A stretch of DNA of 64,000 nt from assembly GCA_963816145.1 (NCBI GenBank), contig CAWFJP010000011.1:288001-352000 (forward strand). The letters run 5' to 3'. Source of the DNA: an uncultured delta proteobacterium (GTDB taxonomy: Bacteria; Desulfobacterota; Binatia; UBA9968). The notes under the pieces were generated by a model. That model searched no databases, was not told where the DNA came from, and saw only the letters and a list, made by a program, of their open reading frames with translations. Below, piece by piece: positions 58,040-61,270 of the stretch. Within the stretch, counting starts at the first letter, position 1, and each line of letters starts with the position of its first letter. The position numbers and the translations under genes are program-made.

Positions 58040-59125
58040 ATGCCAAACAAGATCTTAATCGTCGACGACGAGCCGTTTAATCTCGATCTGCTCGAACAGG
58101 AGCTGATGGAGTACGACTATGTGCTCGAGCGCGCTACGGATGGGGTGGACGCGCTGGAGAAGGCCGACCGTTTCGCTCCGGACATCATTCTGCTCGACTA
58201 CATGATGCCGAAGATGAACGGTCTCGAGGTCGTCAAAGCGCTGCGCCAGAGCGAGCGCCACAAGAGCGTGCCGGTCATTCTCCTAACCGCCAAAGCGACC
58301 CAGGAAGACAAGGTCGCCGGCCTCGACGCCGGCGCCGATGACTATGTCACCAAGCCGTTCGATTCCTTCGAGCTGCTGGCGCGGGTGCGCGCAATGCTGC
58401 GCATCAAAGAGCTGCATGACCAGCTGGAAGAGTGGAACCGCACCCTGGCCGACAAAGTTCGGACACAGGTGGAAGAGATTCAACACATGGGGCGGCTCAA
58501 GCGCTATCTGTCGCCACAGATCGCTGAGTCCATCTTGCGCAACGACGAGGATTTATTCAAAACCCATCGTCGTGAGATAACCATCGTATTTCTCGACCTG
58601 CGCGGCTTCACGGCGTTCTCAGACAACGCCGAACCCGAGGAGGTCATGGACTTTCTCCGCGACTATCATGCCGAGATGGGCAAGCTGATTTTCAAATTCG
58701 AAGGCACGCTGGAACGTTTTGTCGGCGACGGCATCGTGGTGATCTTCAACGATCCGCTGCCCTGCGAAGACCATGGCCACAAAGCCGTCAGCATGGCGAT
58801 CGAAATGCGCGACCGGGTCAAAGAACTGCGCGTCGCATGGATCAAAAAGGGTTACCACCTCGATCTCGGCGTCGGCTTAGCGACCGGCTACGCAACTCTG
58901 GGTACCATCGGCTTCGAGGGACGCATGGATTACAGCAGCGTCGGCAATTTGCCCAACCTCGCGGCGCGCATGTGCGCCGAGGCCAAGGGTGGCCAGATCC
59001 TCACGGATCAAAAAACCATGAGCCGGCTGGACGATGCGTTCGACAGCGAAGCGTTTGAAGAGTTTCAGTTGAAGGGACTAAGCCGGCCGGTGAAAGTTTT
59101 TAACATCGTCGGCATGAAGGAGTAG
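58040..59125 (+). CDS. response regulator receiver fused to a class III nucleotide cyclase
   Basis: Receiver plus coiled coil, then VFLDLRGFT, GTLERFVGDG and RMDY..VG..PNLAAR. Confidence 0.92.
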   Translation: MPNKILIVDDEPFNLDLLEQELMEYDYVLERATDGVDALEKADRFAPDIILLDYMMPKMNGLEVVKALRQSERHKSVPVILLTAKATQEDKVAGLDAGADDYVTKPFDSFELLARVRAMLRIKELHDQLEEWNRTLADKVRTQVEEIQHMGRLKRYLSPQIAESILRNDEDLFKTHRREITIVFLDLRGFTAFSDNAEPEEVMDFLRDYHAEMGKLIFKFEGTLERFVGDGIVVIFNDPLPCEDHGHKAVSMAIEMRDRVKELRVAWIKKGYHLDLGVGLATGYATLGTIGFEGRMDYSSVGNLPNLAARMCAEAKGGQILTDQKTMSRLDDAFDSEAFEEFQLKGLSRPVKVFNIVGMKE

Positions 59126-59480
59126 GAACCACCAAGCGGTAAATAGGTTATCCATCGCGACGGACAAGAAAGTACGAAAGTCTACCAGCCAAGGCGCGCT
59201 TTGTCTTTCCGACTTCCCAACGCAGAAATCCTATTCCCCATCGTGAATCGTTTTTCCCAGCACGAGGTGACGTCAAACGAGTGATCGTATTTCAAAAATA
59301 AGTCCTCAACTCCGTCGCGTCGCGCTCTCACAACGCGCCACGAGGCATAATTCTCAGAATAAAACGCTGCGCTGTTAGTCTATCGCTCATAGTTCTGCAC
59401 AAACTCCATCAATGGCATGTTATTCCAGCCGGCAAGGAATCTAAAAAAATTAAAAAAAATTCTAGAATGTTATTTTTTTC

Positions 59481-59510
59481 TTGACATACCATTCATTGTG
59501 TCACTATACT
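59481..59510 (+). promoter_or_regulatory. strong sigma70-type promoter
   Basis: TTGACA-N18-TATACT preceded by A/T tracts (UP-element-like). Confidence 0.75.
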
Positions 59511-59624
59511 CGCGACAGATACAAAATATGGGAGGGTTATCGATAGTAAACTGTCTTCGCCTGAGTCAAGTTTGAAATCCTATCAAGAAAATGCCCGCCC
59601 GTTTAATCTTACAAGGAGGTGCTT

Positions 59625-59672
59625 ATGGCTGCTAAGAAAAAAGCCAAAAAGAAAGCCAAAAAGAAAAAGTAG
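59625..59672 (+). CDS. 15-aa Lys/Ala-rich peptide MAAKKKAKKKAKKKK (not in the ORF track)
   Basis: RBS AAGGAGGT 4 nt before ATG; own promoter upstream and terminator downstream; mixed AAA/AAG codons. Confidence 0.7.
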   Translation: MAAKKKAKKKAKKKK

Positions 59673-59751
59673 TTAATTGAGTGGTGGGGTGGTGGTGGTA
59701 TAAACCCTCCTAACTCTCAGGCGACCAGATAACCGTTCTGGTTATCTATCA

Positions 59752-59792
59752 CAGAAAGCCCTCCGGAAATGTTTCGGGGGGCTTTCTGCTTT
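59752..59792 (+). terminator. intrinsic terminator
   Basis: CAGAAAGCCCTCCGGAA-ATG-TTTCGGGGGGCTTTCTG-CTTT. Confidence 0.8.
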
Positions 59793-59960
59793 TAATAAAC
59801 CCGGTATTCATCCACTCTAGCCATCTCAGAACATAATATCGGCAGAGTAATTGTCGAAGAGTTCCCCCTGCGACTGCCAGTGCGAACCCTTTTACCGCAC
59901 CGCCAGTTACATCAGAGACTGTATTGCGTCGCTTTGAGCAGTTCGTTAGAGTTGTTGGCA

Positions 59961-60536
59961 ATGACAAAGACACCTCGTCCGAAATTATTGTTAGCTTTTT
60001 GCCTGGTCCAGCTGTTATTTCTCGGATCGAGACTGTCAGCAAACGGCGCTGAGTCGACAACCAAAGTCGACTACAAAAAAATGGTGCCGATTCTCACGCC
60101 GATGAAAGAGGTCGCACCGACACCGGAATTCAATCTCGCCACACCCGACGGTAAAAAGATTTCCTTGCGCGACTTTCGCGGCAAGATCGTCATGTTGAAT
60201 TTCTGGGCCACTTGGTGCGTTCCTTGCCGGGAAGAGATGCCGGCGATGGAAAAGCTGTATCAAGAATTCAAGGACAAGAACTTTGTCATCCTCGCGGTGG
60301 CGGTCAAAGATCGCAAGCAAGACGCTATTGATTTCGTCAAAGAATTGAAACTGACCTATCCGATCGCTCTCGATCCAGAGGCGAAAGTTGGCCAAGAATA
60401 TGGCGCTTGGGGATTGCCCGCGACCTATCTCATCGGTCCCAAAGGCGAAGGACTGGCACGCGGCTGGGGACCCGCGGAGTGGTATGGTGCCGGCGCGCGC
60501 AAGCTGATCAGAGAATTGGTCGACGGCAAACGATGA
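59961..60536 (+). CDS. TlpA/ResA-family thiol:disulfide oxidoreductase
   Basis: Signal/TM segment, LNFWATWCVPCREEMP and GLP.TYLI; next to ccdA. Confidence 0.9.
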   Translation: MTKTPRPKLLLAFCLVQLLFLGSRLSANGAESTTKVDYKKMVPILTPMKEVAPTPEFNLATPDGKKISLRDFRGKIVMLNFWATWCVPCREEMPAMEKLYQEFKDKNFVILAVAVKDRKQDAIDFVKELKLTYPIALDPEAKVGQEYGAWGLPATYLIGPKGEGLARGWGPAEWYGAGARKLIRELVDGKR

Positions 60537-61270
60537 CCGACGTCAACGCCTTTGTCGCTTTTGCCGCCGGGATATTTTCCTTCCTCTCTCCTTGCGTGCT
60601 GCCACTGATCCCATCTTATCTTTCCTTCGTTTCGGGCGTTTCCCTCGAGGAGATGCGCAGCGAGCAGGCGCGCTCACAGGTACGTTGGCGCGTGGTGCTC
60701 AATTCGCTGGCGTTTATCTTGGGCTTCTCCTTGGTATTCGTCTCCCTGGGCGCCTCGGCGAGTTTTCTCGGCGGCCTGTTCATGGGCTACCGCAATGTCA
60801 TTCGCATCACCGGCGGCATTTTTATCTTGCTCGTCGGCCTCTATCTGGTCGGCGCTTTCAAGATCGCCGCACTCGATCGTTATTTGCAGTTCAATTTGAA
60901 GGACAAACCGGCCGGCTATCTCGGTTCGGTTCTCGTCGGCATCACCTTCGCTGTCGCCTGGACGCCTTGCGTCGGTCCAATCCTTGGCGCGACTTTGGCA
61001 CTGGCGAGCACCTCCGGAGAAGTCGGTCGTGGGACATTCTTATTGATGAGCTACGCCGCCGGGCTGGCCTTGCCGTTTTTCTTGAGCGCACTGGCGATCG
61101 ATTCGTTTTTTGAGTTCTCGCAGAAACTGCGCCGCTATATCCAAGCGATACATGTCATCGGCGGCATTCTTCTAATCGTCGTCGGCATCCTTTTGATCAC
61201 CGACTATATGACGTTTTTGAATGCCTACGTCCTCCGCTTCACCCCTACTTGGCTGCTGCAACGGCTCTAG
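60533..61270 (+). CDS. ccdA: cytochrome c biogenesis protein CcdA
   Basis: SFLSPCVLPLIP.Y and WTPCVGPIL motifs; six TM helices. Confidence 0.92.
   Translation: MTDVNAFVAFAAGIFSFLSPCVLPLIPSYLSFVSGVSLEEMRSEQARSQVRWRVVLNSLAFILGFSLVFVSLGASASFLGGLFMGYRNVIRITGGIFILLVGLYLVGAFKIAALDRYLQFNLKDKPAGYLGSVLVGITFAVAWTPCVGPILGATLALASTSGEVGRGTFLLMSYAAGLALPFFLSALAIDSFFEFSQKLRRYIQAIHVIGGILLIVVGILLITDYMTFLNAYVLRFTPTWLLQRL

Follow-up and report, generated by a model that had tools for sequence, protein, structure and literature searches.

A conserved stand-alone micro-gene for a predicted oligolysine peptide in uncultured Binatia

bTHX and bL37 are lineage-restricted micro ribosomal proteins whose size class and charge are similar to those of the peptide described here, the predicted 15-residue product of a micro-gene in a stretch of 64,000 nucleotides (nt) from an uncultured delta proteobacterium (Desulfobacterota, Binatia, UBA9968; assembly GCA_963816145.1, contig CAWFJP010000011.1, positions 288,001 to 352,000 of the forward strand). 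We call this whole stretch the window and give all positions in its numbering. Histone-H1-like bacterial proteins rich in Lys and Ala, such as chlamydial Hc1 and Hc2 and the AlgP-type tails, have about 100 amino acids (aa) or more and contain other domains or long repeats. At the level of RNA, the L20 operator of E. coli belongs to an autoregulated ribosomal-protein mRNA with a long-range pseudoknot. The small protein bS22 of Borrelia is reported to have been previously unannotated, to consist of Lys and Arg to 61% and to have an abundant transcript (PMC10618245). The same text describes it as a helical peptide bound in a conserved 16S pocket (h2, h27, h44, h45) and names eL41 and mS38 as its analogues; the authors anticipate bS22 in other bacteria as well (PMC10618245).

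The micro-gene in the window forms a complete unit on the + strand (59481-59796), consisting of a promoter, a 108-nt leader, a ribosome-binding site (RBS), an open reading frame (ORF) and a terminator with a 17-bp stem. We put a probability of about 0.6 on the reading that this is a real, strongly expressed stand-alone gene whose translated polycationic peptide is the functional product and binds nucleic acid. The ORF (59625-59672, from ATG to the TAG at 59670-59672) encodes MAAKKKAKKKAKKKK, with Lys at 10 of its 15 residues, and the RBS AAGGAGGTG (59613-59621) is located 5 nt before the ATG. The sigma-70-type promoter, composed of TTGACA (59481-59486), an 18-nt spacer and TATACT (59505-59510), matches in 11 of 12 positions and is preceded by an A/T-rich tract (59441-59480) that is UP-element-like in sequence. 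Within 3 kb, five promoter-like sites were found versus 1.7 expected from shuffles, and the promoter of the unit was the only one above 9/12. The predicted transcript of about 280 nt (59517-59796) would start some 7 nt past the -10 element and end in the U-tract of the intrinsic terminator (59752-59796), whose stem (59752-59788) has 17 bp, nine of them G-C, and a 3-nt loop, and is followed by CTTTT.

By sequence reading and a consensus scan, the promoter, the A/T-rich tract, the RBS, the ORF and the terminator were each located where the original prediction had put them. The conserved promoter and terminator of its own bear out the description of the unit as stand-alone, and the ORF does fall below the cut-off of the ORF track, being 48 nt long where the list for the window has a floor of 20 aa. 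A 34-aa ORF started by TTG (59572-59676, + strand) overlaps the micro-ORF in another frame and is also polybasic (RKKPKRKPKRKSS); we did not take it as conserved because its upstream part spans indels that are not multiples of three.

The unit was searched for in 60 relatives by blastn with 59440-59800 as the query and a cut-off of E ≤ 1e-15. Family f1 had it in 32 of 36 genomes and the sister family f2 in 5 of 5, and none of the 19 genomes of family f3, most of which are complete, gave a match. Identity of the unit among relatives drops to 67%. A strict ORF pattern was found in 41 of 57 f1 genomes, 0 of 5 f2 genomes and 0 of 28 f3 genomes; in five f1 genera that failed this pattern, blastn retrieved the unit in all five, with variant peptides. 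Only two of 301 genomes sampled from the phylum had the strict pattern, both of them in f1, and a relaxed KKKK micro-ORF pattern gave incidental matches only in five genomes of the unit-less family. These counts take in the unpublished genomes G005, G035, G389 and G429, and the titled genome records with the unit are mostly labelled Candidatus Binatia bacterium. One relative (G003) possesses two equal-scoring copies (C25:188348-188706 and C26:27873-28231), reflecting either duplication or assembly redundancy.

The coding signature of the ORF is pronounced. All 38 loci of a first set kept the RBS, the ATG and the ORF, and so did 49 of 49 once more genera had been added, as the original prediction had expected of homologous loci; the AAGGAGGT of the RBS was invariant across the 38 loci, with the variant GGAGGC in one genus. 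Peptide length in the 49 loci ranges from 12 to 19 aa with every length change in frame, and 39 distinct nucleotide ORF sequences encode 18 peptides. Pairwise differences between ORFs of the same length numbered 805 at codon position 3, versus 146 and 138 at positions 1 and 2, and 664 differences were synonymous compared to 181 non-synonymous ones. All 403 AAN codons were AAA or AAG, and none was AAT or AAC. Among the roughly 400 purine-only codons there were no GAR or GGR codons and only eight AGR (Arg) codons, which are sited at the C-terminal end. Since AAY, GAR and GGR codons are absent and AGR codons few, a purine tract or an Hfq-type ARN motif (an A-R-N repeat) is disfavoured as the explanation for the conserved sequence. 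The features retained in the peptide are Ala or Thr after Met, the spacing of Ala and, in many of the Terriglobia described below, a C-terminal His.

For an ORF-independent test, metagenome contigs were scanned with the 3' RNA element of the unit only, which gave at least 120 loci, 112 of them with at least 230 nt upstream. Among these listed matches, 105 of 112 had the RBS, the ATG and a poly-Lys ORF (17 peptides from 66 distinct nucleotide sequences). Six of the seven exceptions are without any other part of the unit and have the look of chance hits within other genes. The seventh, L259, on a metagenome contig of 1321 nt, is rearranged: its 3' half is intact from the last Lys codons on, while the 5' half is replaced and the end of a longer ORF runs in frame into the Lys tail (...DEDEEKKKAKKKKK). 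Either a gene fusion in nature or a chimera formed in assembly could account for it.

Codon periodicity alone cannot separate the two strands, as the codon-aligned antisense frame reads Phe/Leu and has the same periodicity. We regard it as highly improbable that the locus is a structured non-coding RNA with an incidental ORF, or that the opposite strand harbours the gene, in this case for a Phe/Leu-rich peptide of the type I toxin kind. The strong structure and conservation of the RNA would fit such a view, and the third-position changes of the + strand do amount to Leu/Phe changes in the antisense frame; however, all 49 genome loci and 105 of the 112 listed metagenome loci retain RBS, ATG and stop of the + strand, promoter and terminator are both oriented along that strand, and the absence of AAY, GAR and GGR codons again speaks for coding. 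No start is conserved in the antisense frame, which in at least 11 of 38 loci is closed by a stop directly before the tract, with no start after it. A type I toxin-antitoxin system with a hydrophobic peptide on the opposite strand was rejected, since a conserved start with an open frame was not found.

The original prediction had called for a transcript, and short contigs lying within the unit were indeed present in RNA libraries. Of the 24 listed sequencing runs, 20 contain part of the stretch, and eight of these are recorded as RNA. Two soil RNA libraries of 35-41 million letters hold 58% of the sampled words, which is approximately the share of the 280-nt unit within the 461-nt query. We compared the contigs of four RNA runs (X1, X2, X5 and X8) over 59300-60100. 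X1 and X2, which are perhaps one data set, each provided a 259-nt contig corresponding to 59530-59787 with no differences, X8 a 221-nt contig covering 59550-59766, and the contig depths in X5 were 59-123. The contigs from the RNA libraries lie wholly within the predicted span from promoter to terminator, leaving 59300-59515 and 59813-60100 uncovered, and none runs across the terminator into the redoxin gene, which we did not count as evidence for a lack of read-through. The contigs support transcription of the unit and give a weak hint that its RNA is discrete and abundant.

How does the unit compare with the described systems? Like bS22 and its analogues eL41 and mS38, its peptide is very short, very basic, missed by annotation and transcribed, and its Lys content (10/15) places it among the peptides under 40 aa with very high Lys/Arg content to which bS22 belongs. 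Unlike bS22, to which it has no sequence relation, the peptide has only half the length, consists almost wholly of Lys and Ala and differs in length between loci; its likeness to a ribosomal component is one of analogy. That the peptide resembles neither bTHX nor bS22 had been part of the original prediction, and neither model matched over its cut-off. In the genome containing the window, PF08213 (bS22/COX24_C) gave no match at E ≤ 1, with Corynebacterium glutamicum as a control over the cut-off, and the best match of PF17070 (Thx, bTHX) was a sub-threshold one at another locus (15.6 bits versus a cut-off of 29.7, inside a 759-aa frame), with Thermus over the cut-off as the control. Neither protein was found in five genomes of the unit-less family or in five carriers of poly-Lys ORFs from other phyla. 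With the H1-type proteins the peptide shares the low complexity of Lys and Ala, and the 22-58 aa KKKVAKKK repeats of Planctomycetota and Verrucomicrobia resemble free-standing tails; yet it is far shorter, Pfam returned 0 families for the 20-36 aa relatives, and the likeness is by composition. The suggestion that the peptide substitutes for polyamines found no support: 60 of 61 relatives, carriers of the unit or not, have domains of the spermidine-synthase type (Spermine_synth).

Poly-Lys relatives of 20-36 aa retrieved 0 families or chains from NCBIfam, Pfam and PDB, a weak negative given the low-complexity filters, the 15-aa peptide itself being below the length limit. A 43-aa planctomycete ORF used as a homology query had 6213 word-sharing candidates, none at E ≤ 0.001. 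Rfam families, including the lysine riboswitch, 6S and tmRNA, gave no match at gathering score, and at E ≤ 10 the region 58900-60300 produced chance-level matches only. ARAGORN detected no tRNA or tmRNA in the window. No description of the peptide strings or of such genes was found in the main texts of open-access papers and preprints; the Thr/Lys leader candidate in PMC10117765 is not this unit.

Beyond the original prediction, we found similar micro-ORFs in other phyla and a long-range structure in the mRNA. One genome per species was scanned for an RBS followed by ATGGC and KKKAK, which yielded at least 120 loci. Among the 121 matches listed, 69 stop within 40 aa, nearly all of them being pure K/A/T/V peptides, and ORFs of 9-58 aa with at least 80% Lys/Arg/Ala and a strong RBS occur in several phyla. 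The labels of the listed loci include Terriglobia/Acidobacteriota, Planctomycetota, Verrucomicrobia, candidate phyla, Bdellovibrio and others. The 3' RNA element of the Binatia unit was present in 12 of 120 loci among the matches listed. In other phyla, the untranslated regions (UTRs) are unrelated to those of the Binatia unit and the layout is the same, with a promoter-like site, a strong RBS, the micro-ORF and a terminator. A strong hairpin with a T-run was found within 220 nt past the stop in 52 of 62 loci, as compared to 11 of 223 random windows from the same loci, which are not mutually independent. At gathering score, Rfam identified only two tRNAs in 14 poly-Lys loci of other phyla.

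In one acidobacterial family, an RBS followed by the pattern MA(x)KKKA was detected in 25 of 41 genomes, whereas the reversed control gave 0 of 41. A verified ORF of 12-19 aa was present in 22 of the 41 genomes, at least two of which have two verified copies; further genomes have a second match to the pattern. The majority of the verified peptides have a C-terminal His, and one equals the peptide of the window. Although the ORF pattern is common in this family, similarity to the acidobacterial unit at the DNA level was restricted to 3 of its 41 genomes. Poly-Lys ORFs of 12-19 aa were seen in Terriglobia-labelled or related loci (L044, L061, L065, L082, L085, L100, L109, L117, L124 and L309-L335), for example MATKKKAKKKKH and MATKKKAKKAAKKKH; these have their own promoter-like site, an upstream AAGGGAGAA resembling a Shine-Dalgarno (SD) sequence, and a terminator stem containing GGGCCTCC. 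In the Planctomycetota, the ORFs are 22-58 aa long and located 180-480 nt upstream of lysA, with nadD divergent, in 12 loci of a syntenic group (L058, L066, L072, L083, L094, L097, L107, L108, L112, L123, L135 and L146); a blastp cluster comprises 13 loci beside lysA, one of them on the other strand. The planctomycete lysA was assigned to TIGR01048 with 468 bits (cut-off 298). Three loci labelled Gammaproteobacteria (L078, L105 and L129) have poly-Lys ORFs of 20-29 aa some 1-2 kb from a tRNA-Lys(CTT)/tRNA-Arg(TCG) pair, and this neighbourhood is confined to them. The size of 12-19 aa in two unrelated lineages hints at a size-limited site, while the versions of 22-58 aa and the near-pure Lys content speak more for a general polycation comparable to an H1-type tail on its own.

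The mRNA of the Binatia unit is highly structured. Its minimum free energy (MFE) over the whole transcript was -89.6 kcal/mol (z = -4.1 versus shuffles), and base pairs were counted on 37 sequences. Near the 5' end, the SD-like element A (GGGAGGGTT, 59530-59538) is nearly invariant and complementary to the anti-SD-like element A' (AACCCTCC, 59703-59710) past the ORF. In the helix A:A' (59531-59538 with 59703-59710; duplex -17.3 kcal/mol), which is almost invariant, 97% of the cells are paired, and one variant is compensated (U:A to C:G in L175). Element B (CGCCTGAG, 59558-59565) pairs with B' (CTCAGGCG, 59716-59723; duplex -17.0 kcal/mol); this helix is included in the RNAalifold consensus, and seven of its eight pairs are invariant while the outer one covaries (CG 28, UG 4, UA 3). 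Following B', hairpin P (59727-59747; AGATAACC / GGTTATCT, loop GTTCT) is 97% paired with changes on both sides in 6 of 8 pairs, and the terminator has such changes in 13 of its 17 pairs. Pairing counts and covariation establish B:B', P and the terminator; a role for A:A' is inferred. Because the elements follow one another in the order A, B, ORF, A', B', simultaneous formation of A:A' and B:B' would create a pseudoknot-like clamp linking the two untranslated regions. Such long-range pairing across the mRNA for a small basic protein, with SD-related motifs, resembles the L20 operator by analogy.

Between B and B', no common fold around the RBS and the ORF was found, the single-sequence MFE structures disagreeing with one another. 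This inner domain includes a C-rich block (GCCCGCCCG, 59593-59601; GCCCRCCC in relatives) and, 3' of the stop, a G-rich (GGT)n-like tract (59682-59699) that is present in 37 of 37 aligned units in a variable register. RNAalifold pairs the C-rich block with the G-rich tract, and single-sequence folds disagree among themselves on this point. A' also pairs with the RBS, more weakly than with A (-10.6 kcal/mol), and a three-way constraint between RBS and ribosome, A' and RBS, and A and A' would explain the blocks that do not drift. At the promoter, TTGACA was unchanged in 37 of 37 related loci that reach the -35 element, with a spacer of 18 nt in 31 and 17 nt in six, and the nine bases directly 5' of it read ATTTTTTTC in 35 of 37. 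The near-invariant blocks of the alignments are the -35 element with the preceding T-run, CTACAAAATATGGGAGGGTT in the 5' part, CGCCTGAG, GCCCRCCC, the RBS with the ORF start, the G-rich tract, AACCCTCC, after a few bases CTCAGGCG, the hairpin loop GTTCT and the terminator. The loop of hairpin P (59735-59739) and its closing C-G pair are almost invariant in the 37 units, although the stem covaries freely, and this pattern suggests that the loop may be recognised by its sequence, either by a protein or in a loop-loop interaction.

These features bear on another explanation, according to which the abundant 280-nt RNA would be a translation-sensing riboregulator or dual-function small RNA. It would act, for instance, through its invariant C-rich anti-SD-like or its SD-like 5' motif, and the poly-Lys ORF would sense the supply of lysyl-tRNA or ribosome traffic and thereby alter the fold or stability of the RNA. 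We consider this unlikely, though it accounts for several observations: A, B, A', B' and the loop of hairpin P hardly vary while identity elsewhere in the unit drifts to 67%, the RNA has long-range pairing and folds better than its shuffles (z = -4.1), the unit assembles in small RNA libraries, and the planctomycete ORF adjoins lysA in 12 syntenic loci. A precedent is the trpL system of Sinorhizobium, whose attenuator RNA and leader peptide are each reported to act in trans. However, the phyla have the ORF in common rather than the RNA, their UTRs being unrelated in the acidobacterial, planctomycete and candidate-phyla units, and this is our main reason for favouring the peptide over the RNA as the functional product. 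Furthermore, no Rfam family matches any of these units, no target was identified, and the retained features of the peptide (Ala/Thr after Met, Ala spacing, C-terminal His) are ones that a codon counter would not need.

The genes next to the unit offered no link to lysine. The upstream neighbour (58040-59125) is a response regulator with a fused adenylate/guanylate cyclase domain. On the downstream side lie a TlpA/ResA-type thiol-disulfide oxidoreductase (redoxin; 59880-60536) and a DsbD_TM/CcdA-type membrane protein (60407-61270), whose listed frame overlaps that of the redoxin; its true start is probably further downstream. Within the genus, the redoxin is located 3' of the unit in 19 of 19 loci with downstream sequence, and the upstream gene varies. 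A different ORF comes next in the sister family and in part of the f1 genera, and by reading of the sequence its N-terminus is alpha/beta-hydrolase-like.

A classical ribosome-mediated attenuator acting in cis, in which stalling at the Lys codons lifts the terminator and turns on the downstream genes, is very unlikely to us. As in the his, trp, leu and phe leaders, a short ORF dominated by the codons of one amino acid (10 of 15 for Lys) is followed by an intrinsic terminator, here located between the ORF and the downstream genes. The best Rfam match of the region was His_leader, with 21 bits versus a gathering score of 49 and E = 1, and it arose from the terminator; planctomycete poly-Lys ORFs, moreover, have lysA downstream. 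In contrast to attenuator leaders, the unit has neither a cognate operon for lysine synthesis or transport nor an antiterminator that depends on ribosome position, and it does have a 5'-3' clamp and a structured 108-nt leader before the ORF, which is atypical. The downstream genes encode a redoxin and CcdA, or by family a different, unscanned ORF. The purine-only ORF has no segment able to form pairs with the G-rich tract 3' of it, and MFE, consensus and per-sequence folds showed no ORF-overlapping antiterminator. Elements A' and B' lie 30-50 nt past the stop, beyond the reach of a stalled ribosome. Given the non-lysine neighbours, the missing 1:2-type pairing partner and the distance of A' and B' from the stop, we concluded that classical attenuation is improbable. 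Even the planctomycete unit has its own terminator, which is followed by a conserved promoter-like TTGCAA-N17-TATACT before lysA. The Lys-sensing regulatory ORF offered as an alternative in the original prediction is not supported in its cis-attenuator sense; a trans-acting Lys-sensing RNA would be compatible with this evidence.

Several observations weigh against the view that the gene acts through a translated, nucleic-acid-binding peptide. Throughout an order the untranslated blocks stay invariant, a degree of constraint beyond what a common mRNA would require, and the effector could be the RNA itself. Two variants of A:A' are uncompensated. The RNA contigs are unstranded and show neither transcript ends nor levels, and translation itself as well as the target of the peptide are what we infer. 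The peptides differ in length (12 to 19 aa, elsewhere up to 58 aa) and are Lys almost throughout, a pattern more in line with a non-specific polycation than with binding in one fixed pocket of the ribosome. The distribution of the unit is not complementary to that of bS22 or bTHX, since the unit-less family is also without both, and four f1 genomes, 60-92% complete, gave no blastn match to the unit. Finally, the position next to lysA in Planctomycetota hints at a link to lysine that a polycationic product leaves unexplained.

If the peptide is the product, as we prefer, the strong constitutive-type promoter would drive an mRNA of about 280 nt whose 5' and 3' untranslated parts pair through B and B', and probably A and A', into the pseudoknot-like clamp, and the covarying hairpin and then the intrinsic terminator would close its 3' end. 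The perfect SD site would load ribosomes onto the 15-codon ORF, and the functional output would be a Lys/Ala peptide of 12-19 residues. As a rule, Met is removed before Ala, and its loss would leave the peptide with a charge of about +10. Judging from its composition and by analogy, the peptide would then act as a polycation on nucleic acid. We lean slightly towards rRNA or the ribosome as its target, by analogy with bS22 and eL41, with nucleoid DNA as the other candidate. The SD-like and anti-SD-like elements may serve mRNA stability, translational feedback or both.

We tentatively propose, as a possibility rather than an expectation, that dedicated, strongly expressed genes for ribosomally made oligolysine (9-58 aa, mostly 12-19 aa) are a widespread unannotated class in several bacterial phyla (the Binatia-labelled lineage, Acidobacteriota, Planctomycetota, Verrucomicrobiota, candidate phyla and others), each lineage having evolved its own structured mRNA for control of peptide synthesis, and that their products are minimal ribosome components like eL41 and bS22 or protamine-like condensers of nucleic acid. 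Were this true, few conserved stand-alone protein-coding genes of bacteria would be shorter. Gene callers are blind to a gene of 48 nt, so a conserved and abundant product of soil bacteria would have gone unrecorded. If the peptide is real, it would be a very small and very basic addition to the bacterial micro-proteome and a candidate for unassigned ribosome density or for nucleoid compaction in phyla that are sparsely represented in culture, and its transcript would be a compact natural mRNA whose 5' and 3' ends clamp a micro-ORF by means of SD and anti-SD mimics. The recurrence across phyla makes the question testable in cultured Terriglobia or Planctomycetota.

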